Source: Lingula anatina
Taxonomy: Eukaryota; Animalia; Brachiopoda
Assembly: GCA_051362555.1 (NCBI GenBank)
Contig: CM120643.1
Span: 17,178,848 to 17,242,847, forward strand
DNA length: 64,000 nt
Direction: 5' to 3'
Position 1 is the stretch's first letter, and the number at the start of each line of letters is the position of its first letter. The notes under the pieces were generated by a model. The model did not search any database. It saw nothing but the letters and a program-made list of their open reading frames with translations, and had not been told where the DNA came from. The position numbers and the translations under genes are program-made. This document shows positions 25,699 to 64,000 of this stretch, in pieces.

Positions 25699-26037
25699 CC
25701 TAAGGTACCATGCCCAATCCTCAGGCACTGCCCTTCCCACCCTCAGCTACCACCCTAAGGTACCATGCCCAATCCTCAGGCACTGTCCTTCCCACCCTCA
25801 GCTCCCACCCTAAGGTACCATGCCCAATCCTCAGGCACTGTCCTTCCCACCCTCAGCTACCACCCTAAGGTACCATGCCCAATCCTCAGGCACTGTCCTT
25901 CCCACCCTCAGCTACCACCCTAGGGTACCATGCCCAATCCTCACGCACTGTCCTTCCCATCCTCAGCTACCAATCATTAGGCACTGCCCTTCCCACCCTC
26001 AACTACTACGTTAAGGTACCATGCCCAATCCTCAGCT
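25699..26037. repeat. 55-bp minisatellite, ~6 units, degenerate at the right end
   Basis: Unit cctaaggtaccatgcccaatcctcaggcactgtccttcccaccctcagctaccac repeated head-to-tail with no spacers. Confidence 0.93.
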
Positions 26038-26684
26038 GCTCTCAACCAAAGGTACACGTACAAAGGTTCTTCTCACCCAATTAAGTCTTTATTTCAACCT
26101 TTCAAATGTATGGAGTACGGAAAATTGTCAAAGTAAAAAGATACACGTTGTAATCATATCGGTTATTGCAGATCCTCACCCTGTAAAGGAGACAAAGCTT
26201 TGTTTCCCATTAATAATGATTCCTTGGACTTGATTCCTTGATATACAACAAATGTAATGATATAATGCGCGAAAGTTCGCAGGTGTCAGTAGGTCTATTA
26301 CCAAAGGCTATGTTCATCTCACTATTACCAAGCTCTGTACTTCACATCGAAAACTCAGTTATACAAGCGTCTTTTTTTATTAAATCAATATCACAATCCC
26401 CGGGGAGGTGTCAGATGAGAGATTTGCATGTCTCACATCTTACACCTTGACTCTCCACTGGTGCGAGATTAAAATGTTCGCGGCAGTCGTGACACTCGGA
26501 TAAAAAATCGAACACACTAACACTGCTATGTATAGAATACTTGCCCTATTGGGAAGAGACGCCAAGAGAAATATGATACGGAATCAATGCAATCTTGTTA
26601 CATAAATGAATGTTTAAAATACGTATTTTATAAACAACGCAATAACCATTTGCTTCAGTACCTTTGTTTATATTTCCTGGTTAA

Positions 26685-41400: not shown

Positions 41401-42547
41401 TAGACGATGGTGACAGCAAATGGGAAAGTCAGTCGACCTTACTGCTGAATTAGAAAAGTAGATATTATGTATCTGAGGCACGGTAGGGTCACTTCGTCTG
41501 TTATTTAAAAGTCTTCGTGCTTGACCATTTTTGTAGAAGTTCGTGCGATTTATAATACTGTACACTTAAATCATTCAGTGCTTATTAATTAAGACTGGGC
41601 TTTTTAAATTCGTATATACAACGCATTTGCTCTCAACACATAAGCTCCATTTGTAAGTGAAATACATCATAGAATATGTATCACTGCCTTCCACTCTTCC
41701 AGCAATTTATTTTGGCTGTGCTATTCTCCTGCTGTGCATCTCCACAGCCATGACAGTGATGGTGATGAACATGCAGTACAGCGGGGCGCATGGTGCACGT
41801 GCTCCTCCCTGGCTCAGGAGAATCGTCCTTGGCAACTTGGCCAAGGCCATGTGTCTTCAGAGACTGGTGAAGCAGAACCTAGAAAACTGGAATCCATCTG
41901 AGGTAGGTTTAATTGGCCGTGTGATTATTACTCGTAAAACTGTACCAGTAGAACTCGTTAGATAATGACATTCCATATCTTTTAAGATACATAACACAAG
42001 ATAATTATTAGGTTTACTTTAATAAGGGGAGAGACGCAGTTTTTCAAGATGAATAAATAAAAGTGATAACATGTGCCAGAAAATATAAGTGGTCCAGCGG
42101 AGCAAAACATACAAATAGGCATACACGTGGTACAATTATCTTTTTTCTTTCAAGGTGAAAGATAAAGTCGCCCCTGCTGCAAACGGCAAAATACCCAAGA
42201 AGGATGAAGAATACATGACAACAGAAACACCAGTACAGAAATTTACTTCAACGGCAAGCCTATGCAGGACACCACAGCTACGCCCTCTTTCGGCGCCGTC
42301 AGAAAACAAGAAAGGAAACAACCAAGACAATGATACGTTGGCGAAAATTTTACGGAGGTTGGATGGGTTCGAGGAACATTGGAAAATGAAACGGCGTTAC
42401 GACATATGCAAAATGGAATGGGAGTTAATCGTATTAGTAGTTGATAGGATGTTTCTTTTTCTTTTCTTCTTTATGACATTTGTGATAAATTTAATATTTC
42501 TCGCGTATAATCCCGATACGAGTGATTACAGCTTGGACGTTCAGTAG
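34957..42547 (+). CDS. Nicotinic acetylcholine receptor alpha-type subunit (Cys-loop, cation-selective), 7 exons, ~500-516 aa
   Basis: Exons: 34957 (or 34981/35005)-35053 signal peptide; 35815-35984; 39539-39583 (DEKNQILFSAVWLRM); 40234-40343 (WRPDIILYN); 40840-41375 (Cys-loop CKLDVQYFPKDLQVC, loop C YQCCSEAYPD, TM1, GEK-TM2); 41703-41902 (TM3); 42155-42547 (TM4, VDRMFL). All phases compatible. Confidence 0.93.
36151..36309. mobile_element. MITE family B (CAGGGGCG termini)
   Basis: Near-identical inverted copy at ~47935-48108 (caggggcggatcc ... atccacccctg). Confidence 0.6.
36525..38100 (-). mobile_element. 5'-truncated non-LTR retrotransposon (LINE; RTE-X/L2-like) in nAChR intron 2
   Basis: RT motifs DFSKAFD, GTRQGCMVSPLLF, YADD, YKYLG and C-terminal C..C..EDEYHFVLVCP. 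The 3' end has AATAAA + (CAT)n. Exact 15-bp TSD aaacacattacattg at 36510-36524 and 38101-38115. Confidence 0.93.
36599..38100 (-). CDS. Partial LINE ORF2 (reverse transcriptase and C-terminal domain), open throughout
   Basis: The 465-aa track ORF extends upstream without a stop to the truncation point (VDFSKAFDRVQH...). Confidence 0.85.
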
Positions 42548-43679: not shown

Positions 43680-44280
43680 AACCCGCCTAGGCGAGGTCAT
43701 TAGTCTGTGCAACCATGTGTCAGGTTTTGTACCTTTATTTTTTGTAAGATATACAACTGTACTACTATGGAGCCACACAATCAGTGCTTTCCAATTTTCT
43801 AAGCACGAACGTAGAAGGTAAGGCAGCTAATTGCGTTTCTATTTTTTTATCAAAGAATGCTCCTAAAAGCCCACTGAGTAATAATTATAAACCAAAACGT
43901 TGAAGATACTGAGGGTGGACCTTTTTCAATGAAAACTGAAATAACAATGAAGTTTCGGCCAGTGAGTCCTAACAACTTCTACTGACATTAGTCTGATGAA
44001 GGTCTACGTCCAGATTGGCTGTAATTAATATACTGGGTAAGCTAACGGTATTAAAATATTTCGGCTTGTGTTTGATAATTGTCATATATGAATAAAATTA
44101 TTATTTCACTATTCAGTACAAATTGTGTGGCTACTTCAATACCTCGCCCATGTAATATTAGTATTTTGGTTGGAAAATTTTCCCAAATTATCTTTTGTTT
44201 ACCATAAGAAATTTATATGTTAACATTTAGTTTAAATGTGTTAAGAGTCTAATCCGTGTCCTCCTAGTGCTACAAATATC
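43680..44280 (+). repeat. Segment upstream of peptide gene copy 1, duplicated at ~49964-50765
   Basis: acccgcctaggcgaggtcattagtctgtgcaaccatgtgtcag... through ...ctcctagtgctaca occurs at both loci. Confidence 0.85.
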
Positions 44281-44537
44281 CATGATTGCGTCGCGGCAGG
44301 GCAATACAGGGCCAGTGTAATTGTTCATCCATTTACAATGGGCATGTCCTTAAACGTCACATCACTCGAGGTCACAGACAGCCAATCAATATTTTGCACC
44401 CCTGTGCTTTTTCATATTCATTTTTTAGATGGGCGAGGCCACTTCCTACGCCAAGATCCCTATTTGAGTGGTGGAGAAATTTGGAAAACTTCATACTGCT
44501 GTTGGAACGACTCCCGAGTGTGTGACAAATTTACAAC

Positions 44538-47229
44538 ATGGAGAAGACAACCTTGATCGCTTTGCTCTTGGTGACAATGGTCGTTATTGACTTGTTCGCG
44601 GATGCGGAGGGTAAGTTAGCTTAGGCCAACTGTTTTTTTAAATTTCATGATATGAAATGCACAAAACATGTTTCATATTATGTCAGAGTTTCCATGTCAA
44701 GTGTTTGACTTCAACCCAGTTATCGACAATTTGGGTTTTCTTTTTATTAGCATGCAAGAAGATGGAGTACAAGTCATTATTGCCATTGGTCTTTACTTAG
44801 ATGCATGAACGGAAATAAGACCAATTAAGCATTTCGGCTCTATTTCTGCATATGGTTATAAATTTCTCAACCTGCGTCTCCCTCTAAATAGTCATATACC
44901 AACTTAGTACCTGGCCTTACATAACGGGATAACTTAAAACGCCTTTTGCGCATGGTGGTTCGGACCAAATCGTCTATGCCGATTTTCACCGCCTCCACAA
45001 TGGCCTGAAACCATGATAGGCATGGGTACAGCTACGACGAGCCCAATGCCACCTTTCTTGTTAAATTGTACTGGACACAAGAGGGGCAAAGAAAAAGAGG
45101 CAGACCCAAGACCACATGGAGGAGGACGGTTGAAGCAGAACTGAAAGAACTGGGCGAAAGTTTGGGGACAATTCAACATCTAGCGAGAGACAGAGAGGAG
45201 TGGAGGACCTTTGTTGTCGCCCTAGACGCCCAACGGCATAACAGGAGATAGATAGATAGATCACAGATAATTTGGAGTCAGTTTTGCCACTATGCCGGCC
45301 ATACCATGCTACCATTGACTTAGAAAAATACAGAAAGACATCTATTCATATCACCCCCAAAATGATATTTGAACGGATTATTTTGCTTGTTTCCCGTCCT
45401 GTATATAAACTGGTTAATGCTTTACTGTCAATAAACACATCATTCACCAAAATGAAAGAAAAATAGTGGGACGGATTTCTGTCAAAAATGTCAATATCAG
45501 CTCTTGGGTTTGGTAATAGGTTTAATATCTGATTGTCTTCAGTACTTTCCTTTTGTTCTTTACTGGATAACAGCACCCTTCAAGAATGGCATGTTTAGCT
45601 TTGATAAAGTTCATTTTTTCAACGACCTTATACAAGTTTTCCTTGTCGCCTAAGGGTGTATTCCAAGAGATTTAGATCGATCCAGAGATTAAGATTTAGA
45701 TCGACCTAACTCCCCTAAATTGCGGTCAGCCGAGCGCGCACCATAGTTAATTACCCCCCTTACAGCTTTTAGTAGGCGGGAAAGACGCTTAAGCCGGCTA
45801 AGCTGACAGTAATCTAGTGAGACTCCCCACAGGGATAGATCGATCTAAAATCTATGGAAATGGGGTCTAAGTCACCCTCGTTGACAAGTTGTCGAGTAAA
45901 CTTCAAACGCCACTTGAAACTTCTTTCAACTAATCCAGTGCCTGCTCCACCTCATGGGGGTCCTAAGCCTCGACTGTTTGCCTGTTACACCACTACCTTA
46001 CGGGGGTCGTCGTACACGACGTACAGTGTAGTTCTTCCACTGACATTTTGGACTCCGTGAAAGAAAAAGTTTGTGTCACTGTAAAGTACGCCTGTTTAAC
46101 AACTAACACGATTGGTGAACTAAAATATCAAATTAAGACAGTTACAGTAATAAAAAATAATGAAGGCCAATATATGATAATACGAAGAATTTAGATACCA
46201 ATGTAAAAAGAAATATAAAAAAAATGATGAAAATGTCATATATAAATTTTCATTTCCCAACCATTTTACAGGTGACTCTAATGAAACGTCGATTCCTTAC
46301 AAAAATACTAACAGCGATACCATAAATTTGGCTCACACACACGTAACTTGGGGGTTGGGGGTGGGAGGGGGGGGAGAAAATGGGATTTTAAACCTTGAAT
46401 AGAATCGACAACAGTTCATTCTAACATCTCATTTGTACCATATATTTTCACGATTGTGTTGCTTTAGGTGATTCTAGGAGGAGGAGGAGTCCTAGTAGGA
46501 GGAGGAGCCTTAGTAGGAGGAGGAGTGGTACAACACAGGGGGATGTTCAAGAAGTCGATGACGACGTAAGTACATGGTTATTTTATTAGTATCACCCTGA
46601 ACCCTAAGGCCCGTAAATGACTACGTCAGGTTAACATTTCTCGGCAAAACCAATTTCTGTTAAGGTCTATTATAGAGTGTAGACAGCAAACGTAGGCCTC
46701 AAATATCGTAAGCCATGAAAACGCCGTTTCCACGCCGGGTGAGAGACAATCTTTAGAAATTTAGTTTAAAACTGCGTCAGGTTATTCTTATATAGTACGC
46801 CTTAAAGACATAATAACGAGAAGTGCCAATCTGTCTTTAATTTCACGCCAGCATCAAAACAACAGGATTTCTTTATTCTTCTGTCCAAGGCAACTGTTGG
46901 CATGCATGGTAGTTTATTTAGATACATTGATACGTACATGTAGGTAGAGGGTAGCTGTACCAGTAATACCAAAGAGTGACCACAGAGGACGTATCAAAAT
47001 CTATTAGTCAAATTATGTAAGATGTTGAACAAAGTGATTTTCCATTTAAGAAAAAGTTTTTGAAAAGTTATTTGAAAAGTATTGACACCATCTATTCGTC
47101 CAATTTATACAGAGGTAGAAATACCTACAGTATATCGTGTATCTTATTCAGGTTAATCTGGCCAAAGTGATGGAAAAACTGGTTGACTTTCTGGATGAAG
47201 ATGCTGACGATGAGGAGAATGACGAATAA
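44538..47229 (+). CDS. Secreted Arg-rich/acidic-tail peptide precursor, copy 1 (divergent), 82 aa
   Basis: Exons 44538-44610, 46468-46565, 47152-47229 (intron phases 1 and 0; GT-AG): MEKTTLIALLLVTMVVIDLFADAEG-DSRRRRSPSRRRSLSRRRSGTTQG-DVQEVDDDVNLAKVMEKLVDFLDEDADDEENDE*. Confidence 0.8.
45068..45260 (+). mobile_element. 3' fragment of an RTE-clade LINE
   Basis: WTQEGQRKRGRPKTTWRRTVE...ARDREEWR is the typical RTE ORF C-terminus, followed by a (GATA)n tail. Confidence 0.8.
45340..45600 (-). mobile_element. Possible degenerate BEL/Pao gag fragment
   Basis: LPNPRADIDIFDRNPSHYFSFI...IRSNIILG resembles the BEL/Pao gag P..F.G.P..Y..F pattern; recognised by eye only. Confidence 0.4.
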
Positions 47230-49678
47230 TGAATAACATGGTACCCTGAAATTCAGACGAGAAACGGATGTGGACATATTTTTTCAAAATAGACCATGTA
47301 GCTGCCTGCTCTTCCGACCTTTGACTTTCAATTGTCTCTCATTTAAATCGCCTTGAAAGTTTAGAAATACTCATACGGGTTTAAATTCTGGTATACAATC
47401 TGATCATGTGTATTGATACCATTAAAGACAGGGAACAAGTGAGGCACACCAAAAGCCAGGTCCTTCTTGTTTGAGAAATGAAAGAACAAGTAATTATCCT
47501 GAAATTCGGGGAAGACAATTTGGCGTTGAAGTAAAAAGAAAAAGAAAATGAAACACCTTTTGTTTTAACTGTTTCAGCTACTAACATTGCTCTTATTTAT
47601 AAGACTATTTTCACGGAACAAGTACAAGGGCATGGCCACAAACGAGCAGTGTTGGGCGTGGTCACAGTAACTGACAAGGCGAAAGGTTGTCGAAACTTAA
47701 ATCAATGTGCCACTTCCGTGCATTGACATATAAAGCTTCAATTGTACAATTGGATATTTTATCTCCAAAATTCCTTCACTGCAACAACTACAGATGATTA
47801 TTCCATCTGGATTGCCGTACATTTGCCGTGTAAATGTGCGCCATCTTTGTCCCATTTTACATGTCAAGATGTACCTTCCCCTACTGTGTCCACGATTTTC
47901 TTGCCATTGCTACAGACAGCTCTGATCAAATATTCAGGGGCGGATCCAAAGAATTTTTCTGACAGTCTTCCAAATTACCGGGTATCTTTATTGATTTATC
48001 CTCCATTTTTAACCGTCTTACGACAGAAAAAATTAGATACCCATCAATGTAAACTTTAAAATCTGACGGTCTTCCGGAAGACCCAGAAGCCGGCCTCAAT
48101 CCACCCCTGATATTAGACCCACAGCATGTGAAATCCCCAGTAAAATAATTTATGTTCGTTTTGAAGTAACAAAAAAAAAAGTAAAATGTAAAAACACAGT
48201 ACATGTAAGCGCAAGGTATTTGAGACGTTGAACTTCTTGTTTCCGATGTACTCGTATATCACCAGCTCTTCTGTATTTAACTCAACGCCAGGAGGTAGTA
48301 CGTTTATCTCTTAAACTGATTGCATTCAGCTAGAGTCCTCCCGGAATTGGATCATACTAAGTAAACCGATAGTTGCAGTGGGAATGAGCCTTAAAAGAAT
48401 GGTTTGTGCCTCTGTTTATGGAATATCTAAAAAGTCCCCTCTGAACCAATATTTGATCTATCCAGTAGTTTCCATGTCATTTTTCGTGTTGGGCTAACTT
48501 TAGGAGTTTGTTGTTCTTTTGAAAGCTAGCAGAGTATGAAATTGTTTGAAACATGCTCAAAACACATTTCTCCCTCCGCGTATGCGAACGCACACCAATG
48601 TTTGTCTTTGCACTCAAAACGTATAAGACGTAAATAATAACGAATACCTTCGCCTTATGTTTGCGTATGTGCGCAAGGCATAAATCTTATCACAATTGTC
48701 ATTCCACCTACTAACATCATGCATGATGGCATAATCGCGTTTCATTTGGTATTTTGCTTCAAAATAGGATTTTGATAAAAAAGATAAGTATACTGGAGTT
48801 AACGCTTGTCTGCAGAGCACGACAAAACAAGTCTTAACAAGACTTTGGAGTATCAGTTTCTAATGAAATCTTTAAAAAAGATCCGTCTTTTGCGCTCAGA
48901 TTGGCAGAAAGCACGTTTGGGTCAGCTCCACCAAACCGATTGTTTTCAAGTTTGTTAAAACGTGTTGCTGCCTTGCACTTAATGAGGGTGTCTTGTATCT
49001 TCAGGTATTGAAAACTGCTGTAGCGGGGTGTCTATTTAAAGATATCATGACCTCAGTAACCCGCTCTAAGATGCGCCAAACCCACCACATACCAATGAAT
49101 CTGATGAATGTATATAGTATATCTTATTCTTTGGAAGATGTAGTATACAACTGAACTACTTTGGAACGAAACAATTACCAGTGTTTTCCGGTTTTCTAAG
49201 CACGAATTTCGTTGGTTGGGTAGCAGATCAAATTTCCATTTTAACTGTAACACACTCTCATAAGTAATTTGAGTTATACGTGTAATTCGCAGTCAAAGCA
49301 ACTTTCCTACATCACAGTTTACTCACATTTAAAAGATAAAATCATGTTTGATATATCTGCCTGGAAAAATGAGACGTGAGACAAGTGGTATATGAGTTTG
49401 TTAGATCTTTCTGTTAAAATTTTTTATTATTATAAAAATTATTTCACGCTTTTCGTAAGCAAAGAAAGAGGATAACTAAGTACAGTTATAAGTTTCAGTA
49501 GCAATTTGAAGTTCTGTTCCAACTTGTCTCCTGATGAAACCCAACGCACATACTTAGAATTAAATTTTTTTACAATAATATCACAGATTGTTTTTATTTG
49601 CCATAAGAAATGAATACGTTAACACTGAAGTGATACAGGGCGTAGAATGAGAATAGCGCCTGGTACAGCTATCGAATG

Positions 49679-49915
49679 CAGGGGCGAATCCAGGATTATT
49701 TGAAAGGGGGACGTGGTGTGGGGTTAGCGGGCCCCGAAAAGTTGGTATTTTAGAGGGCGAATGGTGCCATTTGTTGCTGTTTTAGAACTATGATTCAGCT
49801 AGTCAAAATTCTTATTTCAAGAGGGGACCATTGGTGTGATTGTTTCCAGAAATCGAAGGGGGTGGGGGTGGGGAGGAGTCAGGATCCCCCTGACAACCCC
49901 CTAAATCCGCCACTG
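49679..49915. mobile_element. MITE with CAG(G/T)GGCG termini
   Basis: caggggcgaatcc ... aaatccgccactg. The paralogous segment at ~50890-51120 lacks it (empty site near 51098). Confidence 0.65.
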
Positions 49916-50562
49916 AACGCTAGAGCACAAATGTGAAATCTGAAATATGAGAGAGCCTCCTTCAACCCGCCTAGGCGAGGTCATTAGTCTGTGCAACCAT
50001 GTGTCAGCTTTTGTACCTTTATTTTTTGTAAGATATACAACTGTACTACTGAGGAGTGACACAACCAGTGCTTTCCAATTTCTAAGCACGAACTTAGAAG
50101 GAGAGGCAGCTAATTGCCTTTATATGTTTTTTGCAAACAGACATCATCAAGGAATGAGGTTGTGATAGATATGACAAGGGTGACAGGTTGTCACCTCTAT
50201 CACAACCTCATTCCCTGATGAAGCCTGACGAAATATTGGCTGTTAAGACCAGACAAATATAAGTAGCTATAGACAGAATCTTCACAAGTCTATTACAATA
50301 ACGTAGTTAATAATGAAACTGCCCTACACTGAAATAACAATGAAATTGCGGCCAATGAGTAACATCATTTATTGACGTTAGTCTGATGAAGGTCTACGCC
50401 CAGGTTGACTGTTTGATAATTGTCATATATGAATGAAATTGTTTCATTTTTAATAGAAATTGTGTGGCTACTTTATTTTGGTTTGAAATTTTTTCACAAA
50501 TTATCTTTTTCTTTACCATAAGAAATGTATGTGTTAACATTTAGTTAAAATGTGTTAAGAGT

Positions 50563-50730
50563 CAGGCCCGTAGCCAGCAATTTCAAAAGGGGGGTTCGTT
50601 TTCTGAAAAAGTGGACCTTTTTCCATAAAAACATCATGTACCTAGATCAAATTTTACCCAGAGTGGACTTTTTCCCAGCAAAAGGGGCGGTTCTTTCGAA
50701 CCCCCCGAACCCCCCCTGGCTACGGGCCTG
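50563..50730. mobile_element. 168-bp MITE with perfect 15-bp TIR and 5-bp TSD
   Basis: TIR caggcccgtagccag / ctggctacgggcctg with agagt duplicated on both sides. Empty site ttaagagtctaat at ~44241 in the paralogous segment. Confidence 0.88.
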
Positions 50731-53700
50731 AGAGTCTAATCCGAGCCCTCCTAGTGCTACAGATATCTTATTTCGTTGGTTAGGTAGAGGGTCACATTTC
50801 CATACTCTCACAAGTTCATTGAGTTACGATTCATTATAATTCAATGCATCGAACACTCTGAAGTTCGATCTTCTTCAGTCAAAATTTTTAATTATTATAA
50901 AAATAATTTACGCTTTTCGGTAGCAATTTCAACTTCTGTTTCAACTTCTCTCCTGATGCATCCTCATGCATATACCCGATACCTAGAATTAATTTTTGTT
51001 TAAAATAATTGTCTTTTTTGCCATAAGGAACGAGAACGTTAACACTGAAGTGATAAAGGGTGTAGAATGTGAACAGCACTTGGTACAGATGTCGAATGCT
51101 TACAGCATAAAATGTATGTAATCAAGACATTTGTACCGACAGTGGTTAAATCATCTGGAGCCATGCACTGGAAGGAAAGTAGCAGTCTTCTGAAGGAAAG
51201 AAATAGGGGGAAGGCTAACGTTTACCCCCCCTGTATGTGCATGTAAAAATAACATTTTTTTCAAAAATCTCTGGGGGATAGGGGGCATTCAGACTACGAT
51301 CCTGTGATTACTAAAGGATCCAATCTCATCTTCATTTTTATCTCACATTTACATGCAATATACTAAATCGTTTAAGTTTTTCTAGCGTTTGTTTGAAATT
51401 CGTTGAAACATTGCACATGTGCACGAATGTTTTCCTCGACTTCCGTCATAGTAAAACCAATTACCTCTTCTAAATCAACCAAACAAACGATGAAAAGAAA
51501 CATCTTTTTGACAAAATATTTTGTCATGTTTTGGGGCGTGAAGTAATAAAAGAAAGGAAGTCTGCGCTTTAAAGCATACATGTTTTCTACGGGTACCGGT
51601 ATATAAGGCACCTTTACCAGTATCAGTTATTAAGGTCCACTTCCTCTGTGCGTGCTAAGTAAACAAATATGACAAGATTTTCATAAAAGACCTTTCTCCT
51701 GAAACTGATTTTGTGTGGCATTTCTTCATCATTCCACTCCAAGCGACAAGATCACAGTCACAGACCCGGGCACGTGACCACAGACAGCTATTCAAATATC
51801 GAGCTTCGTTTAGCTAGTGATTTATAACGCCTGAATTTTTTGAAAGATCAGTGTTTGGCTCTTTAACTCGGTGACCATGCTGACAAACGCTTCAAACGAA
51901 TAATTCCAGAACATTTGTTATAAATAAAATTTGCTTATATACACGCGCGTTTCAATTAACTGTCTATTAACGAACGTTTAGTTTTTTTTAAAATAAAGAT
52001 GGACACAATGTTGTATCTTTTCGTATTCTTTTTAAATGTTGATTATATTTTTATATATGCAATCAAAGCATGTTGTAAATATTAGAAAGAGAGACAAATA
52101 TCATCAGTTTATCGATTATACTCAAAGCTTTGGGCATGTATAAACATTTATAAACACGATATTAATAGCGTTATTTCCTGATCGTATAACGTGCATGTGA
52201 GAAATGTTTGCAAGCGTGCGTCGACAAGTAGGTGTTCGTAGGTGTAACGTACATCAACGTATGAAAAGCGCACGAGTGGCCCATAATATTATGAACATAC
52301 ATGTCCGAGTAACGTATAATGTAAAAAAGTAGATTAACGTATGCCATCGTGTTTGCCAAAGTACATGTACGAATAATGTACGAATGATGTATATGAGCGT
52401 CTGAGTAACGTGTATATAGCATATATCAACGTATGAATTACGTACGAGTGGCGCATACGAGCATATGAATAACGTATACAAACGCATATCAACGTACATG
52501 TATGTCATCGTAAGCGTATCTCGACGTACTGGGTGTGAGTGTACTTGGGAGTGGTGTATATGAGCGTACGAGTACCGAATATGAGTGTGTGAGAACTATC
52601 TGCATCCTCTCCATCTGGAACAATTATAATGAAAATGTTGGCATAGAACATTATTTATACCACAGATATGACAAAACGCAGAAGATTCGTTTTCCACAGT
52701 TTCATCATACTTTTTAAAAGTATACGTTGAACATGTTCGTCTTATAATACTTATGATGCACAAAGGATGCGTTAATATACGTCTGGCATTTCGGTGTCTC
52801 AAAATTGAAGGAAGTACATTGACTAAGTAACACGTACAAGACACAGCCGCGGAATCAACGTCGGTAAAAGTTAAGTTACAACCCAAGTCATTTACAGTAC
52901 TTTTTGTAATTAGCATATTGTAAGTTGTTGAGAGAGGTTCACCTCAGAGATGTTAGAGAATGAAGCTGTGGCCATGTGCAACCATTTCGTTAACGCTGTT
53001 ATACAAGCCGTCGGCTGAGAACAATGTATGGCCAGCTATCGAAGGCCTACAGTATTCAGTGTATATACAATGTATATATGCGCTGTGTCAGCAGACATTT
53101 GTGATCACCTGGACGCTGAGAAGTAACACACAGCTTAAGGAATGGGAGGAGGGAAAAGGGTAACACTTCACAAAAGTGGCATTTTTTTTCAAAAGTACCT
53201 GCCCCCCCCCCCTTCACGCTAGCACTCTTGTTTACGGCCTTTGGTATGTACTATATGCACATATAGTACTGATATATGTATCACGGACCGTAAATATGCT
53301 ATCCATGCACCCCATACCCCCCACCACCACCACCACAGCCGACGATGAGTAAACAAAGGATCCTCTGTCATCTTAAAATTTACCTAACACTTTCGTGTAA
53401 CAGTGTACACTTTAAAATCGTTTTAAATTAATTTTGGCGTTGGTTTGAAATTCGCTGATCAAGCATTGCACACGCACACGAGTGTTTGCCTTGGTTTCCT
53501 TGACCTTTATGTTACATCATACTAAAATCAATCATATCATCTAGATCATTCAAATAACGTATAGAATCATATACTTGTTTTTATATAGTATACATGTAAC
53601 ATACCGGAAGTAAAAGCGCGAGCAGCAGTACCAGAACAAGGTTATACGAAGAATAACCACTTTGACCGTGTTACGTGAAAAATAGGAGATTTTGGCCGTA

Positions 53701-53814
53701 AAGTAATCGCACCAAAACCTGTTTTGTGACATTTTATTATCATGGCACTTCATGCAACTTGATCACAGACAGGGAATCAAAGTTCAAGTCTCGTCCTTTT
53801 CTTATTCACGCAAA

Positions 53815-53922
53815 AAGTTATGTAAGCAGGGCGTGGTTACGTGGCCTTATAAAACGAGGCGTCAGTTTGCGGAAACTTCACAACTCCGTTCAAACGGCTC
53901 CTCAGTGGGACGGGCTTGCAAC
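53815..53922 (+). promoter_or_regulatory. Putative core promoter and 5' UTR of peptide gene copy 2
   Basis: GGGCGTGGT GC/GT-box at ~53829 and TATAAAA at 53848-53854, 75 nt before the ATG. The same module lies before copy 3 (58995) and copy 4 (62062-62068, minus). Confidence 0.6.
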
Positions 53923-55595
53923 ATGGACAAAAAAACCTTGATCGCTTTTCTCTTGGTGACAATGCTCATTATTGACTTGTTCGCCGATTCGGAGGGTAAG
54001 TTGGCCAACTATTATTTGTATCGTTTGGTATCAATTTTTGTCTATAATTGATAAAATAAATGCTTACGTGTAGAAAACCATGCGTGTATCTATCATTACC
54101 CAACGTTTCCATTCCATATGTCATAAGTGCCATATCATTTGTTGATATCCTCAATCTTTAGCTTCGACCCGCCGCCGTCGCCGCAGCCGCCGTCGTCGTC
54201 GTGCAATGGGGGATGAATCAGAAGGGATCCTGTCGAAGGAGGCTGATCAGTCGGATAAAGACGTAAGTTCCTCGTCATTTCATTAGTATTAGCCTAAACC
54301 AAAAGCCATGCCTCTGCAAGAAGAATTTCTGTTTATTTAGTAGTACGCGTACAGTAGGAAGCAAAGTCAAACATTTTGATATCCGACACAGCTAATCTCC
54401 ATCGATTGGACTGACACGAGAGTAACAGAGCTTCAACATTTGCTACTGTATAATTATGTGTTAGTTTAAAATGGAAGTCCGCCATAATGTTTGTATCGTG
54501 GAATGTAGACTTTTCTTCGATGTAAACTTGCCATAAGAATAAGACTTTCTCTACACCAATTCTCATCACTTATCAGTAAAAATTATTCTTCAAAATGGCT
54601 TGTATAAAAAGAGCTTGGAGCCGGCGCATGAAAAGGTCGGGTAAATGGTACCCAATCGTTTGCAGCAGGGACGTTGCAAAAACTCAAATATTTATATGCC
54701 AGTGGTATAATATTGAATCATGTGGAATTTCATTAGATAGCAATATGCTTTAGGATTTTGTCACCCTTTGCCCAAAACTCCTAATATACTGCCTTACATA
54801 CATTCTTCTGGGTAATAAATAAATCTTTAGTGTTCAGTGTTATCTTACGGGTGACGTCATAATTGCAATTTTGATGTAAAAACTGAAAAAGCGGTTACTC
54901 AAATTTCTCTTTTACCTGAGCATCCACGATCACCGTTTCAATGCCGATTTAGTGACACCATTTAGTACTCCAAAACCCTGCCAGCGATTTTCTTAGAAGT
55001 CTTATATGATTTTTTTGTTGATAAACCAAAATATGCCTTTGTTTAAGGAAAATCTGTAATTAGGGGCTCAGAACTCCATAACAAAAACATTTAAACCAAA
55101 ATGACAGCACGGGATTGTTGCCTATAGACTTCTAATCAACTCTGCCAATATTTCGTGATAAAATCTTGTTTGGAGATGAAGTTACACGCCCTACATTTTG
55201 CTATCTCACCTCAAAATCGAAAGGTGTTAAACTGACGATTAAAACTTTGAGTTGCCTATGCTTACACATTGCAACGAAAAATAATAAACGCCGATATTTT
55301 ATATTTCGAGGTTTTTTTCGTTGTTTTAAACCAGTACAAAGACAGATGCATGATTGAATAATCAGATGCAGGAAAAACCTCATTAATAAAGGGTTACAGT
55401 AACCTAAACATATTTTTTAAAACTTTGACTGAATAATTCATCCACGCGGAAAGCTGATCTAGAAGGAGCTAGGTAACTACTGATACCATGCATCTTTTTC
55501 AGGAGGGTACGCTGACCAACCTGGTGGCCAAACTAAGAGACCTTGATGCGGACGAGGACGTAGAAGATGATGATGACGATGACGGTGACGAATAA
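53923..55595 (+). CDS. Secreted poly-Arg/acidic-tail peptide precursor, copy 2, 88 aa
   Basis: Exons 53923-53995, 54162-54262, 55503-55595: MDKKTLIAFLLVTMLIIDLFADSEA-STRRRRRSRRRRRAMG-DESEGILSKEADQSDKDEGTLTNLVAKLRDLDADEDVEDDDDDDGDE*. Candidate polyA signal AATAAA at 56356. Confidence 0.87.
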
Positions 55596-56794
55596 CGTAC
55601 ACTGAGTTTCAGCGAGAATCAGACGTGAGCCTAGCAACTGTTTTCCATTTCACGGACCTTGAGACATTTGAATCACTAGAACAGTAATCAAATTAGTTTT
55701 ATCATAGTATACAGTCTGATCATATGCGCCGTTGCTACTAAATGTTAGCCAAAGACCACCAATGAAGTTCAATGAAATTCAGGGTAGTACCATTCAGCTT
55801 CGGATTTGTCAAACATAAATTACATTGTTTAACTAATTCAATATTATGTCACAGAAGCAAAACGGTGCAGTTACCAACAGATAATAGTGGGCGTGGTCTC
55901 AGTGATTGGCAGAACTACATTCTGGTCGATTTACGATATCCACATTATTTGGTAATGTCAATGCGTGTTGTGGATATCTTTCATTTTGAATCCACTCTCA
56001 TTAAAGTAGTGATACACATCGCGATCCAGTAATACAAAGCAACAAAAAAGCCTTTTCATCAGGGATATCGATGCTTTATGTTACAAAAAAATTTAATCTT
56101 AATAAAATGAAATAACAGTCCTTAGAAAGTGGCAAACTAAAAGCTGCCCATTTCTGAGATCTTCATTTGATAACATCAGCTCGCAGAAGGTTGTTCCTCC
56201 AAAATATGAACTTCTTGCGTAAAATTGGATACTTCAGAATGTTGGTTTAATGGTGTGAATATAGATAGTTAATGCTTTTGTTTTCTTAAGTTGGCTGCAA
56301 TAATAAATTGACAGTTTATACTATTGTACTAAAAGTTCCATTGTCTTTTCTGATGAATAAACTGCAACTTTATTTCATTCAGTTTCTTGATTATTATATT
56401 TGATGCGGTAATGAAGACCACTGCAATTTCTATAGAACCATAGGCCCTAAGGACCATAGAATATACTAGTGTTTTGTACATAATGTATATATGCATATGT
56501 CATACACCGCGATCCTTTCCATTTTCCTTTATGCTTGAAGAATGTAATCTGTTGACGACAGACAGTGATGTCAGTGAAAGTGCCCTGTGCACCGCTCTAT
56601 GGATCAGCACTCTGATGTTGACAATAGGCTCTTCTGGTTAACCGCGTAAAGTAATCGCAGTCACGAGGCATGGAATCACCCAAATGGGAATGAATGAAAA
56701 GCAGAATAGCTCATCCCTCAAAATTAATTTTCTGCTACTAGGCATGAATACACCACCTCCAGCTATTGCTCCTGGTGCACCAATATGATCACAG

Positions 56795-57850
56795 AGGGTA
56801 ACGAACGAACGAAATGGTACCGAAACCTGTTTTGTGACATTTTATTATCATGGCACTTCATGCAACTTGATCACAGAGAGAAAACAAAGTTCAAGCCTCG
56901 TCCTTTTCTTATTCACGCGAAAATAAGAATAAGACTTTTTCTACACCAATTCTCATCACTTATCAGTAAAAATAATTCTCCAAATTGGCTTGTATAAAAA
57001 GAGCTTGGAGCCGGCGCATGAAAAGGTCGGGTAAATGGTACCCAATCGTTTGCAGCAGGGACGTTGCAAAAACTCAAATATTTATATGCCAGTGGTATAA
57101 TATTGCATCATGTGGCATTTCCTTAGATAGCAATATTCTTAAGGATATTGTCACCCTTTGCCCAAAACTCCTAATGTACTGCCTTACATACATTCTTCTG
57201 GGTAATAAATAAATCTTCAGTGTTCAGTGTAAGCCTACGGGTGACGTCATAATTGCAATTTTGGGGTAAAAACTGAAAAAGCGGTTTCTCAAATTTCTCT
57301 TTTACCTGAGCATCCATGATCACCGTTTCAATTTCGATTTAGTGACACCATTTAGTACTCCAAAACCTTTCCAGCGATTTTCTTAGCAGTCTTATATGAG
57401 ATTTTTTTGTTGATAAACCATAATATGCCTTATTTAAGGAAAATCTGTAATTAGGGGCTCAGTAGTAATGAAGATCAGTGCAATTTCTATAGAACAATAG
57501 GCTCTAAGGACCATAGAAGAAACTAGTGTTTTGTACATAAATGTATATATGTATATGTTATGCATCGCGATCCTTTCCATTGCCCTTTATGCTTGAAGAA
57601 TGCGATCTATTGACGGCAGACAGTAATGTCAGTGAAAGTGCCCTGTGCACAGCTCTATGGATCAGCACTTTGATGTTGACAATAGGCTCTTCAGGTTAAC
57701 CGCGTAAAGTGATCGCAGTCACGAGGCATGGAATCACCCAATGGGAATGAATGAAAAGCAGAATTGCTCATCCCTCAAAATGAATTTTCTGCTACTAAGG
57801 CATGAATACATCGCGTCCAGCCATTGCTCCTAGTTCACCAATATGATCAC
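56795..57850 (+). pseudogene. Exon-less remnant of a peptide gene copy (promoter + intron 2 + downstream flank)
   Basis: Promoter-like sequence to ~56921 is fused to intron-2 sequence (matches ~54535-55070). That is fused at ~57462 to the downstream flank (matches ~56408-56790). All three exons are missing. Confidence 0.8.
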
Positions 57851-57912
57851 AAATCTCATTGTGAAAACGAAAAATACACCTGTATATTGCTCTAAATAAA
57901 TAAAACAATCTG

Positions 57913-57914
<2 letters not shown>

Positions 57915-57960
<46 letters not shown>
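57915..57960. repeat. (AT)n microsatellite
   Basis: Directly visible. Confidence 0.95.
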
Positions 57961-57964
<4 letters not shown>

Positions 57965-58835
57965 CAGTATAACGGATGTTTCCCAAACAACCTGTACTTA
58001 AACACAGTTAATACATTTATTTTCATCCTGGAATCCACTGAAACGCCTTTAATTGTAGCCTTGACAAGGCTTCTTATGATACCTTTTTAAAATAGAAAAA
58101 AAAGCAAAGAAAATCGTGCAGTATCAAACATAATAAGTTAAAGTCTCATTAACTCCATTGTTCAATTACGTCAATAGTATATGTGTAGGATAAACGTCTT
58201 TAGTATTTTTAAATTAAAAAAAAAATCCTGATTCAAGATGCATGTAAATGTATGATTACACTTTTTATTTATTAATTGCAAGTTCGAGGGAATATGTCTT
58301 GGGGGATGTTATATAAACATTAACAAACATTATAACGACCAACAGATGTACCCCCCAGCCAACGCCCAAGGATGGCACTTTAAACCCATCACCTGTAAAT
58401 GAACTCGAAACCCTAACCAATATAACCAATTGGAAGGCGGACTTTCTGTTACATGGACACTCAGTATCTGTACACGGGAAGCTTTGGCCCATCGGGATGA
58501 ATTGTGGTATAGATAAAGTGCGAGGCGCTGAGCTTTACGCCAAATAGAGCAGATAAATGGCGAGGCGAAGCCGAGAAAAGTATCTGCTCTATTTCGAGTG
58601 GTTTATCTGGCTTAATTAAAGCACGGTTAATCATCCCTGATAATGACTAATTAAACTGACAGAGTGTCACCTTGTCACAATGCAGCACGCGAAACGGGTA
58701 AATAATAATGATAAAAATGATTTTATTTACATCTCAAGTTTAAAAACAAAACCCACCCTACTGAGGGTAATGAGCAGCGGCGGATCGGGGTGGGGGTGGG
58801 GGGGGGGGGTGTGGAGGGGGGTCTAGCGGGGCAGG

Positions 58836-59220
58836 GGGTAACGAACCAACGAAATGGCACCGAAACCTGTTTTGTGACATTTTATTATCATGGCACTTCA
58901 TGCAACTGGATCACAGAGAGAAAACAAAGTTCAAGCCTCGTCCTTTTCTTATTCACGCAAAAAGTTATGTAAGCAGGGCGTGGTTAAGTGGCCTTATAAA
59001 ACGAGGCGTTAGTTTGTGGAAACTTCACAACTCCGTTCAAACTGCTCCTCAGTGTGACGGGCTTGCAACATGGACAAAAAAACCTTGATCACTTTGCTCT
59101 TGGTGGCAATGGTCATTATTGACTTGTTTGCTGATTCGGAGGGTAGGTTAGCCAACTGTTATTCATATTTTTTGGTATCAATTTTTGTCTATTATTGATA
59201 AAATGAATGGTTACGTGTAG
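58836..59220 (+). pseudogene. Peptide gene copy 3: promoter + exon 1 (59070-59142) + start of intron 1 only
   Basis: MDKKTLITLLLVAMVIIDLFADSE-G|gtaggt. Similarity to copy 2 stops at ~59220, and I found no plus-strand exon 2 downstream in the window. Confidence 0.75.
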
Positions 59221-60384
59221 TTAGTTTGGATCAGCACATTTCTACAGAAGAACGAAGTAAGGCAAGATCACCCTTTGAACAATTCAATACTAAACAGAAA
59301 CGCTTCTACAAAAGACTACACGAAAAGTGGGCTTTCCCAGATCTTTTGGTCGTTAATGTTGATGATGAATTCATTTTAAAGGAATATTTTCATATTTCAT
59401 ATTTCGAATATCCAATTAAAAAGATAAATGTGAATAAAACGAGCCCAATGAGTAAAGTTATTTTGGTTGTAGTACGAAAATTAGTAGTACCAATGTGTAA
59501 AAATTAAGTAGGTAAATTCACACCTGAGCCTATTACTTTTCTTTGGATACGGAATGGAAAGGATCGCGATGCATAACATATACATATATACATTTATGTA
59601 CAAAACACTAGTTTCTTCTATGGTCCTTAGAGCCTATTGTTCTATAGAAATTGCAGTGATCTTCATTACTACATCAAATATAATAATCAAGAAACTGAAT
59701 GAAATAAAGTAGCAGTTTATTCATCAGAAAAGACAATGGAACTTTTAGTACAATAGTATAAACTGTCAATTTATTATTGCAGCCAACTGAAGAAAACAAA
59801 AGCATTAACTATCTATATTCACACCATTAAACCAACATTCTGAAGTATCCAATTTTACGAAAGAAGTTCATATTTTGGAAGAACAACATTCTGCGACCTG
59901 ATGTTATCAAATGAAGATCTCAGAAATGGACAGCTTTTAGTTTGCCACTTTCTAAGGACTGTTATTTCATCTAATTAAGATACAGTTTTTTTGTAACGTA
60001 AAGCATCGATGTCCGTGATGAAAAGGCTTTTTTGATGCTTTGTATTACTGGATCGTGATGTGTATCACTACTTTAATGAGAGGGGATTCAAAATGAAAGA
60101 TATTCCCAATACGCATTGACATTACCAATATTGAATTAGTTAAACAATGTAATTTATGTTTGACAAATCCGAAGCTGAATGGTACTATCCTGAATTTCAT
60201 TGAACTTCATTAGTGGTCTTTGGCTTACATTTAGTAGCAACGGCGCATATGATCAGACTATATACTATGATAAAAACTAATTTGATTACTGTTCTAGTGA
60301 TTCAAATGTCTCAAGGTCCGTGAAATGGAAAACAGTTGCTAGGCTCACGTCTGATTCTCGCTGAAACTCAGTGCTCAGTGTACG

Positions 60385-61993
60385 TTATTCGCCACCGTCT
60401 TCGTCATCATCATCTTCTACGTCCTCGTCCACATCAAGGTCTCTTATTTTGGCCACCAGGTTGGTCAGCGTACCCTCCTGAAAAAGATGCATGGTATCAG
60501 TAGTTACCTAGCTCCTTCTATAGATCAGCTTTCCGCGTGGATGAATTATTCAGTCAAAGTTTAAAAAATATATGTTTAGGTTACTGTAACCCTTTATTAG
60601 CAACCAGATACGAAAAACGAGGTTTTTCCTGCATCTGATTATTCAATAATGCATCTGTCTTTGTACTGGTTTAAAACAACGAAAAGAACCCTCGAAATAT
60701 AAAATATCAGCGTTTATTATTTTTTCGTTGCAATGTGTAAGCATAGGCAACTCAAAGTTTTAATTGTCAGTTGAACACCTTTCTATTTTGAGGTGAGATA
60801 GCAAAATGTAGGGGGTGTAACTTTATCTCCGAGCAAGATTGTATCACGAAATATTGGCAGAGTTGATCAGGAGTCTATAGGCAACAATCCCGTGCTGTCA
60901 TTTTGGTTTAAATGTTTTTGTTATGGAGTTATGAGCCCCTAATTACAGATTTTTCTTAAATAAGGCATGTTATGGTTTATCAACAAATAAATCTCATATA
61001 AGACTTGTAAGAAAATCGCTGGCGAGGTTTTGGAGTACTAAATGGTGTCACTAAATCGGCATTGAAACGGTGATCATGGATGCTCAGGTAAAAGAGAAAT
61101 TTGAGAAACCGCTTTTTCAGTTTTTACCCCAAAATTGCAAGTATGACGTCACCCGTAGGCTAACACTGAACACTGAACATTTATTTATTTCCCAGAAGAA
61201 TGTATGTAAGGCAGTACATTAGGAGTTTTGGGCAAAGGGTGACAATATCCTTAAGAATATTGCTATCTAATGAAATGCCACATGATTCAATATTATACCA
61301 CTGGCATATAAATATTTGAGTTTTTGCAACGTCCCTGCTGCAAACGATTGGGTACCATTTACCAGACCCTTTTATGCGCCGGCTCCAACCTCTTTTTATA
61401 CAACGTTCAAGGCATTTTGTAGAATAATTTTTACTGATAAGTGATGAGAATTGGTGTAGAGAAAGTCTTTACATCGAAGAAAAGTCTACATTCCACGATA
61501 CAAACATTATGGCGGACTTCCATTTTCAAACTATCAAAATGTTTGACTTTGCTTCCTACTGTACGCGTACTACTAAATAAACAGAAATTCTTCTTGCAGA
61601 GGCATGGCTTTTGGTTTAGGCTAATACTAATGAAATGCCGAGGAACTTACGTCTTTATCCGACTGATCAGCCTCCTTCGACAGGATCCCTTCTGATTCAT
61701 CCCCCATTGAACGACGACGACGGCGGCGGCGGCGGCGACGGCGGCGGGTCAAAGCTAAAGATTGAGGATATCAACAAATGATATGGCACTTATGACATAT
61801 GGAATGGAAACGTTGGGTAATGATATATACACGCATGGTTTTCTACACGTAACCATTTATTTTATCAATTATAGACAAAAATTGATACCAAACAATACAA
61901 ATAATAGTTGGCCAACTTACCCTCCGAATCAGCAAACAAGTCAATAATGAGCATTGTCACCAAGAGCAAAGCGATCAAGGTTTTTTTGTCCAT
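60385..61993 (-). CDS. Secreted poly-Arg/acidic-tail peptide precursor, copy 4 (inverted), 89 aa
   Basis: Exons 61993-61921, 61754-61651, 60477-60385: MDKKTLIALLLVTMLIIDLFADSEA-LTRRRRRRRRRRRRSMG-DESEGILSKEADQSDKDEGTLTNLVAKIRDLDVDEDVEDDDDEDGGE*. Lies within an inverted duplication ~59553-62130 of ~53790-56520. Confidence 0.87.
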
Positions 61994-63199
61994 GTTGCAA
62001 GCCCGTCACACTGAGGAGCAGTTTGAACGGAGTTGTGAAGTTTCCGCAAACTGACGCCTCGTTTTATAACGCCACTTAACCACGCCCTGCTTACATAACT
62101 TTTTGCGTGAACAAGAAAAGGACGAGACTTAAGGCCAGAAATGCGTAGCATTCACGCGATACGCGAGGGCGCTACAGTAGGGCTTCACGTGACTCAACTA
62201 GCCAATCACAGCACAACAATGGCATCGCACGCAGACTCTGTGATAAGTGCTCAGCCCATTGTCAAGTAGTGTTAGTTCATGGTAACAAGTGTCTGACATG
62301 TGCAGAGAAGTTTATTGTAATATATATTGTTCTTATTGTTACATTATTAAATCTAACTCTGTATCCAAGTAGTAACTATACTGTACCAAGTCAGGTACTG
62401 ATGATGTGCAGAGGTCATATAAGCCATTACCACTAATTTATAACTTTAATTTTGTTTAATATGTTATTCATGAAAGATTATTTTTATTTGTTAAATCGTG
62501 ATCTTATTCTTTTTATATTTAAATAATTGAATAATGTGGGTAAAATTGGTCTTCCACTTCTTATTTGCATTTTTCCTTTACTACAAGATTATTTTGGAAC
62601 AGTTGCAGCATTAAAATTTAAAATAAATAGCAATCTGAAAGATTGTCAGTCAATTTATGTAGAATCCGATAATATATTTGAAAATACTGATTGAATTCTT
62701 GGCCTTGCACTGGGCAGTTTCACATTTGTGCCAAGTGCTGTTTTCGGACTCCATTGTACAGTGGTAAAAGTTCTTCAATTGCCATGAAAGTTTTTAATCA
62801 GACTCTGTATGGTGCTGCTATCTGCTAGTGCTATCGGCAACGAATTAGTTTGCCTTTGTTTCTGAGTGAATCTACCGTCTAAAAGGAAAGTTTGGCGTAG
62901 TCAAACGACATTTTATGGCGACAACAATCTCCAGAGCTTAGTTACGCACATGTGCATTCTGCACATGCTCAATTGTAGTGGGGGCCTCTTTGCAACCCCA
63001 CAAATGAAATTTGTGCAAAATTATTGGTAAATAATAACTTTTGCTGACTCGTCGCATCATAATTTTTAGGATGATGAGTCTTATTGAATATTTGATATAT
63101 AATTTTTATCCCTAAGGCCATAACATTTAATACAGGCAACAATTTGCTACATTGTTATTATTGTTAAAACGATTAGGATAGAGGGGTTATATAATAAAA

Positions 63200-64000
63200 G
63201 CGGATGATGACGCCTAGGAGGGTGACGAATGACAAATGACGCTGAGACTCGAGTCTCAGCGAGGACCAGACGTGGGCCTAGCAATTGTTTTCCGGTTCAC
63301 GGACCTTGGGATATTCGAATTACTAGGACAGTAATATAATTAGTTTATATCATAGTAATCAATCTGATCATATGAGCTGATATTACTAAATGATAGCCAA
63401 AGACCACTAATGAAGTTCATTGAAATTCAGGGTGGACAATTCAGCCTCAGTGTCAAACATAAATTACATTAACTAATTCAATATTATGTCAAAGAAGTAG
63501 GAGGGCGTGGCCACCAACAGAGGCAATGTTGGGCGCGGTCTCAGTGATTGGCAGAACCACAGGCTGGTCGATTTACTATATCCACATTCTTTGGTAATAT
63601 CAATGCGTATTGTGAATATCTTTCATTTTGAATTCACTCTCATTAAAGTAATGAAACACAGTTCGTTCGAGTTATACACACCAACACAGATATCAATGCC
63701 TTATGTTACAAAAACACCTTTATCTTTAAAAAATAAAAGTGGCAAACTAAAAGCTGTCCATTTCTATGTATCTTCATTGGACACCACTAGGTCACAGAAT
63801 GCTGGTCTGCCGCAATATAATATGAATCCCTTGCGTTAAATTGGAGACTTCAGAATGCTAATTTAATGATATGAATATAGATAGTTAATGCATTAGTTTT
63901 CTTCGGTCAACTACAATACGAAATTAACAGTTTATGCTATTGTACTAAAAAATCCTTTGTTTTTTCTGATGAATAAACTGCTACTTGTGTCATTCGGTTT
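63200..64000 (+). pseudogene. Remnant of a further peptide gene copy: end of exon 3 and 3' UTR
   Basis: gcggatgatgacgcctaggagggtgacgaatga (ADDDA*EGDE*) followed by ~750 nt alignable to the copy 2 3' UTR, including tgatgaataaactgc. Confidence 0.75.

Follow-up and report, generated by a model that had tools for sequence, protein, structure and literature searches.

The brachiopod Lingula anatina carries, in the 64,000 nucleotides of contig CM120643.1 analyzed here (assembly GCA_051362555.1, positions 17,178,848 to 17,242,847 of the forward strand; hereafter the window), a cluster of small genes for precursors composed of a predicted signal peptide, an arginine-rich core and an acidic tail. Three copies at the locus are intact (c1, c2 and c4), one is an orphan exon (c3) and one is a remnant (c5). 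Translation by coordinates gave three-exon models of 82, 88 and 89 amino acids (aa) for the intact copies, with GT-AG borders at all six introns, intron phases 1 and then 0, and first exons of 73 nt each, the lengths, phases and first exons being those of the original prediction; the cationic cores that it quoted also proved correct on translation, as did its count of 21 Asp/Glu against 4 Lys/Arg in the tail of copy 4. Its description of a duplicating family with a signal, a cationic part and an anionic part in this order is likewise supported. We favor the view, at slightly better than even odds (about 0.55), that these genes encode charge-masked stored precursors which would release an Arg-rich polycation for host defence.

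Gene and precursor anatomy

The signal peptide was called from hydropathy and the (-3,-1) rule. Exon 1 encodes a basic start and a hydrophobic core (best 12-mer 3.2-3.3 on the Kyte-Doolittle scale), and sites fitting the rule are found at residues 21, 23 and 25. Cleavage is predicted after (A/S)-E-(G/A) at residue 25, which is favored because an abundant expressed paralogue, described below, keeps S-E-G but has Asp at position -3 of site 23. The core that would be exposed by this cleavage is 43-75% Arg (67-75% in c2 and c4), and it is followed by Gly-Asp in all six forms known to us, i.e., three genomic copies, two read-derived ends of paralogues and the variant expressed in RNA runs X11-X13, for which this means that no change at Gly-Asp is among the best-supported differences listed. 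If cut at this boundary, the predicted mature peptides would have 23 (c1), 15 (c2) and 16 (c4) residues and computed side-chain charges of +9, +10 and +12; the corresponding tails have 33, 47 and 47 aa, two to three times the length of the core in c2 and c4, and computed charges of -14, -18 and -17, giving pro-forms of -5, -8 and -5. The residues beside the Arg run differ in every form and are aromatic in several of the expressed ones. By shuffle test a helix in the tail is significant in c1 only, the hydrophobic moment of the best 11-mer being matched by 5 of 2000 shuffles in c1, 679 of 2000 in c2 and 577 of 2000 in c4.

The arginines themselves are written in different ways: all 10 Arg codons of the c1 core are AGG, and the 10 of c2 and the 12 of c4 are all CGY (only CGC and CGT). 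Two receptor genes located elsewhere in the window use all six Arg codons. As two distinct triplet repeats thus yield the same composition behind one signal, we infer that Arg content is maintained at the protein level, i.e., that there is selection for arginine. A scan for stop-free segments bounded by AG and GT, whose first 20 codons include at least 9 Arg and which have Gly-Asp further on, returned exactly these three exons in the window and gave no match in 50 block shuffles of 44001-64000; it should be noted that this is a weak control, because the filter was written after the exons had been seen. Further Arg runs at +61712, -54201 and -54183 were rejected as the reverse reading of the same CG-rich triplets. 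An exon-like stretch within intron 1 of c1 (Table 1) matches the start of c1 exon 2 in 16 of the first 26 nt; no splice junction for it is among the RNA joints listed, and it is possibly a decayed duplicate of that exon or a mutually exclusive one.

Comparison of the copies reveals gene birth and death at the locus, which we count for the host-defence reading. Copy c4 is an inverted duplicate of c2, with 92-97% identity between 53786-56523 and 59553-62130 and 98% identity in intron 1. Within exons 2-3 of this pair all seven substitutions (7/7) alter a residue, a number too small to be read as selection. Between c1 and c2 the signal exon is 89% identical, whereas exon 2 is unalignable. The flank upstream of c1 (43680-44249) is itself duplicated downstream at 49964-50563 with 76-91% identity; this second copy is exon-free and is possibly the trace of a lost gene copy. 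Introns and spacers also hold short high-copy repeats (about 45660-45870, 47935-48110, 50563-50730 and 54700-55390), which show very high contig depth in the DNA run X1 and attract many partly fitting RNA reads.

Table 1. Features of the oligoarginine precursor cluster, in window coordinates
Feature	Position	Strand	Description
c1 exon 1	44538..44610	+	ATG, predicted signal peptide, phase-1 donor; low RNA depth in X17
exon-like stretch in c1 intron 1	46272..46342	+	phases (1,0) like exon 2; without Arg run; weak donor
c1 exon 2	46468..46565	+	Ser/Arg core, 10 Arg all AGG, Gly-Asp, acidic tail begins
c1 exon 3	47152..47229	+	amphipathic stretch, Asp/Glu end, stop
TATA-like element	53848..53854	+	75 nt upstream of c2 ATG; also at c3 and c4; function inferred
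c2 exon 1	53923..53995	+	predicted signal peptide; donor 53995 used in X11 and X13 reads
c2 exon 2	54162..54262	+	R5-S-R5 core all CGY, Gly-Asp, acidic tail begins; donor 54262 used in X11, X12 and X13
c2 exon 3, coding	55503..55595	+	acidic tail, stop; reads extend through the 3' untranslated region (UTR) to 56000
c3 orphan exon 1	59070..59142	+	with promoter and a 78-nt stretch of intron; exons 2 and 3 missing downstream in the window
c4 exon 3, coding	60385..60477	-	coordinate translation
c4 exon 2	61651..61754	-	unbroken R12 core all CGY, Gly-Asp, acidic tail begins
c4 exon 1	61921..61993	-	73-nt first exon
c5 remnant	63200..64000	+	last exon-3 codons with in-frame stop and 3' flank; 78% like c2; reaches the window end

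Transcription and the setting of the cluster

Transcription was addressed with six RNA runs from three studies, each run sampled in part (6-26%). In all three runs of one study (X11, X12 and X13) the second intron of c2 is spliced exactly as modeled: the joint from 54262 to 55503 (GT..AG) was seen in four reads of X11, two of X12 and two of X13, with two starts each, and in none of X18. Reads that run from the donor at 53995 into exon 2 are present in X11 (4+2) and X13 (2). In these reads from X11 and X13 the first 8-10 letters of exon 2 depart from c2 and Trp-Tyr precedes the Arg run, and the Ser within the c2 core is replaced by Arg in 17 of 17 reads of the expressed variant. Since the start of exon 2 differs, this form is not c2 letter for letter; it is an allele or close paralogue with introns as in c2, expressed at a low level. 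Read depth in X11-X13 is confined to a single strand, where it covers the exon and UTR bins of c2, and the unique intron bins have none. For c1, X17 shows low depth over the three exon bins; no c1 junction is among the joints listed (15 of 145, all from repeats), and X14, of study P6, has zero depth on the c1 exons as well as on exons 1 and 2 of c2. Of the six splice junctions of the original prediction, one has therefore been borne out exactly (intron 2 of c2) and one in the variant (intron 1 of c2), and the two of c1 are unseen among the joints listed.

A different and very abundant paralogue, whose locus lies outside the examined stretch, accounts for reads that fit the window only on the Arg run (54168-54202) and end in identical loose ends: about 11,900 of 11.05 million records in X17 and 11,604 of 10.71 million in X18. 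Within the roughly 30 letters seen on each side, its signal ends in S-E-G and continues with Gly, 12 Arg, Ile-Trp and Gly-Asp, the count of 12 Arg being derived from ungapped placement on a repeat; a minor form in X18 (23 reads) has Phe-Ser-Leu before Gly-Asp. In both of the runs examined in study P7, about 1,080 of every million reads (about 0.11%) fall on the 34-nt core of this paralogue, which, assuming transcripts of 1.5-2.5 kb, would correspond by rough estimate to 1-2% of mRNA molecules. It was not seen in the four runs examined in studies P5 and P6. This paralogue is probably the main member of the family.

Other features of the window are diverse. Two intronless genes for FMRFamide-receptor-like (Srw / 7tm_1) G protein-coupled receptors, 44% identical to each other, lie at 4837-5946 (+) and 21822-22946 (-); the latter is 99.5% identical over 375 aa to a named Lingula anatina protein, and all four of the best named relatives of the former are proteins of the same species. 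Exons of a nicotinic acetylcholine receptor alpha-9/10-like subunit at 40742-42547 (+) end about 2 kb upstream of c1. A 502-aa open frame with a YADD motif at 36599-38107 (-) is presumably the reverse transcriptase of a long interspersed element. A very acidic 123-aa frame with repeated W/L-D-M/V-P motifs (28916-29287, -) is possibly an exon of another low-complexity acidic protein. In the frame at 35614-35988 (+), a basic stretch, a single hydrophobic segment and a stem rich in Thr recall by eye the N-terminal part of a type II membrane enzyme, and a tandem array with a 55-nt unit, whose core copies are 95-98% alike, occupies 25699-26064.

Proposed role in host defence and alternative functions

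The steps of the proposed mechanism that are observed directly are transcription and splicing, seen for the variant of the c2/c4 type; the later ones are predicted or inferred. The precursor is predicted to enter the secretory pathway and to be cleaved at residue 25. In storage the tail, at -14 to -18, would mask the charge of the core (+9 to +12), leaving a pro-form at net -5 to -8. By analogy with styelins, clavanins and Ciona precursors, a cut before Asp may then free a peptide of 15-23 residues, its Gly being turned into an amide. Such a peptide would bind phosphate- and sulfate-bearing microbial surfaces (lipopolysaccharide (LPS), anionic lipids) and might cross membranes and bind nucleic acids, and the variable residues flanking the Arg run would tune it. 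The conserved Gly-Asp boundary fits this removal of the tail. In styelins and clavanins the cut falls before D or DD, and the boundaries of Ciona precursors are acidic and not basic (PMC7387483); the amidation rule is that given for myticalins, which also display the pattern of a conserved signal with a hypervariable core (PMC5577615). The Arg-rich Ciona peptides KH.C1.640 and KH.C7.94 are antimicrobial (PMC7387483), and the potency of antimicrobial peptides is raised by poly-R motifs (PMC12371492). We also count for this reading the precursor layout with its charges, the spliced and strand-specific transcripts, the maintained Arg content and the high abundance of one paralogue.

Several points weigh against the host-defence reading. 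Natural poly-R segments are typically 3-5 residues long and act with a hydrophobic segment (PMC12371492), and the predicted mature peptides of c1, c2 and c4 contain only 1, 2 and 2 hydrophobic residues. In Ciona, the three peptides whose Arg runs are longest (KH.L63.9, KH.C1.365 and KH.S1007.2) are weak or inactive on E. coli (PMC7387483). Besides inhibiting convertases, Arg strings are themselves sites for these enzymes, so that the core might be cleaved into pieces during secretion (PMC4482483). The comparison of c2 with c4 gives no sign of constraint on the tail, and the three matches to two kB-like patterns in the whole window all lie outside the cluster.

The main rival, which we regard as possible but doubtful, is a phosphate-handling matrix protein for the fluorapatite-chitin shell or the setae. 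It could take two forms. Either the whole polyampholyte would act, with guanidinium binding phosphate and the Asp/Glu tail binding calcium so as to condense a mineral precursor, or the Arg run would keep the tail masked, and cleavage by a convertase would then set free an acidic regulator of crystal growth. The original prediction had named a matrix polyampholyte as an alternative, and the apatite shell of this animal, which is of fluorapatite (PMC13425148), adds weight to it. In addition, secreted acidic proteins were missing from the Lingula shell proteins studied by Luo et al. (PMC4595640), a gap that small unannotated genes could fill. The searches described below found no database entry for these precursors. 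A convertase cut at an Arg string (PMC4482483) and a tail that exceeds the core in c2 and c4 would suit a shell role as well. On the other side, five family motifs had no match in one supplementary file of a 2026 shell proteome and two motifs had none in a 2015 supplement, although these nulls are weak, as the content of the files as protein sequences is unchecked and unannotated genes would be missed. A released peptide better explains both the Gly that is conserved before Asp and the core flanks, which vary and are often aromatic. Furthermore, there is a single S-x-E, which we take to be the kinase motif of the FAM20C rule, and it is present in c2 and c4 only.

That the released polycation is not directly bactericidal is rather unlikely in our view. 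It could instead bind LPS, glycosaminoglycans or extracellular DNA in mucus or wound clots, inhibit furin, or serve as a cell-penetrating signal or deterrent. A hydrophobic face is nearly lacking in the cores, and the Ser/Arg core of c1 resembles protamines. Polyarginines inhibit furin and block the activation of bacterial toxins, the constants in this source being those of D-Arg and cyclic peptides (PMC4482483), and the weak action of the Arg-run Ciona peptides on E. coli (PMC7387483) points the same way. Such roles alone would leave the hypervariable flanks unexplained. A bolder reading, to which we give tentative and limited credence, is that a secreted R10-R12 oligoarginine tethered to a polyanion, at about 1% of mRNA in some tissue, concentrates phosphate and calcium for the apatite shell or is a natural cell-penetrating peptide (CPP); the charged secreted proteins would then have gone unreported by two shell proteomes because the genes are unannotated.

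It appears improbable that these are precursors for reproduction or signalling (gamete coat, seminal or neuroendocrine) and that the Arg run is only a processing site: expression is strongly sample-specific and rapid duplication fits reproductive proteins too, but the precursors have no repeated peptide units and 10-12 Arg is far above the need of a cleavage site. Finally, the view that these are not genes but microsatellites and assembly artefact is largely refuted for the family and has very little probability. In its favor, the cores consist of triplet repeats, and at 1.6% heterozygosity in the species (PMC4595640) c2 and c4 might represent two haplotypes. Against it, the reads are spliced and stranded, two different triplet families both encode Arg in frame, and the DNA run X1 has contigs with letters diagnostic of c3 and c4 alongside others that match c1 without a difference.

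Should the host-defence reading hold, the family would be one of linear cationic peptides from Brachiopoda, from which none was found in the literature searched. It would also represent the most reduced natural version of the signal, cation and anion design, a nearly pure R10-R12, and its natural flank variants would show what is required of an oligoarginine working in seawater. If it belongs to the shell instead, the family would bear on why secreted acidic proteins are reported to be missing from an invertebrate that makes apatite.

Comparison with known systems

Searches at the level of exons, proposed as a check on novelty, found no match to a described family. The exon-1 profile, searched for longer proteins, gave none among 592 candidates at E<=10; the exon-2 profile gave none at E<=0.001 among 1.84 billion representatives; the ESM Atlas returned no usable match and the PDB sequences none at E<=10. 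Among eight exon peptides run against Pfam, one had a sub-threshold match to REV (E 0.24), which was rejected as Arg bias. These nulls are weak, the queries being single exons of 24-42 aa and low complexity. The literature searched, a scope outside which lie bioRxiv supplements and a paper on Lingula immune genes, holds no account of the family, which is apparently undescribed so far. Its novelty as a natural secreted oligoarginine is more restricted: the absence of a family match stands, but there is precedent in print, as the secreted Ciona precursor KH.L63.9 has R8 and R9 runs and the peptides of such R8-R9 precursors are weak or inactive on E. coli (PMC7387483). The proposed likeness to known antimicrobial peptides holds for the overall layout; the amphipathic helix of clavanins, styelins and piscidins and the dibasic site and gene structure of myticalins are not shared.

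The tunicate precursors compared were Ci-MAM, Ci-PAP, KH.C1.640, KH.C7.94 and KH.L63.9 of Ciona and the styelins and clavanins of Styela. Like those of Lingula they have 50-100 aa, are free of Cys and follow the order of signal, cationic and anionic parts; the boundary is likewise acidic and lacks a basic motif for cleavage, Gly-Asp stands there in several of the Ciona entries, and some members carry Arg runs of 5-9 (PMC7387483). Judged by eye, the Lingula signal begins like the Ci-MAM signal consensus and the tail helix of c1 resembles the anionic helix of Ci-MAM-D, which we treat as a lead only. In contrast to the 43-75% Arg and the 1-2 hydrophobic residues of the Lingula cores, the active tunicate members described have an amphipathic, aromatic-rich cationic helix. 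Tunicates belong to a different phylum, and the likeness need not reflect homology.

The myticalins and modiocalins of mussels, above all the Arg-rich C subfamily, likewise combine a conserved signal ending in E-G with a hypervariable Arg-rich core and an anionic extension (PMC5577615, PMC12294457), and the myticalins share a predicted Gly amidation and a multigene family with pseudogenes. Judged by the definition of the myticalins, which asks for over 10% Arg in the cationic core and 35-75 aa in the anionic extension, the Lingula precursors fall within the range, the tail of c1 (33 aa) being just under it. Myticalins, however, have Lys-Arg or Arg-Arg before the tail, whereas the Lingula boundary is X-X-Gly-Asp and the tails are without KR or RR, and they encode signal, core and cleavage site together in a single exon, their sole coding intron being of phase 1 and placed in the tail (PMC5577615), compared with two coding introns in Lingula, of phase 1 after the signal and of phase 0 in the tail. 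Myticalin C has about 31% Arg against the far higher share in the c2 and c4 cores, and by eye the signal consensus has only the E-G end in common with the Lingula signals.

Protamines also have Arg clusters with Ser and Pro, a likeness clearest in c1, but they are nuclear and without signal peptide or acidic tail, whereas Lingula exon 1 is hydrophobic. The layout of piscidin precursors provided a further basis for comparison. The fish piscidin TP4 is, like the Lingula peptides, a secreted defence peptide with a natural poly-Arg segment; in TP4 this is an R5 on an amphipathic helix, and in Lingula R10-R12 would be nearly the whole peptide (PMC12371492). Among synthetic oligoarginine CPPs and furin inhibitors the resemblance is to the predicted mature forms of c4 and of the abundant paralogue, essentially R12 with 2-3 flanking residues, although the synthetic peptides, unlike the Lingula forms, are often D-form or cyclic (PMC4482483). 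The Lingula family shares the signal, cationic and anionic design of the tunicate and mussel precursors and is a member of neither group.

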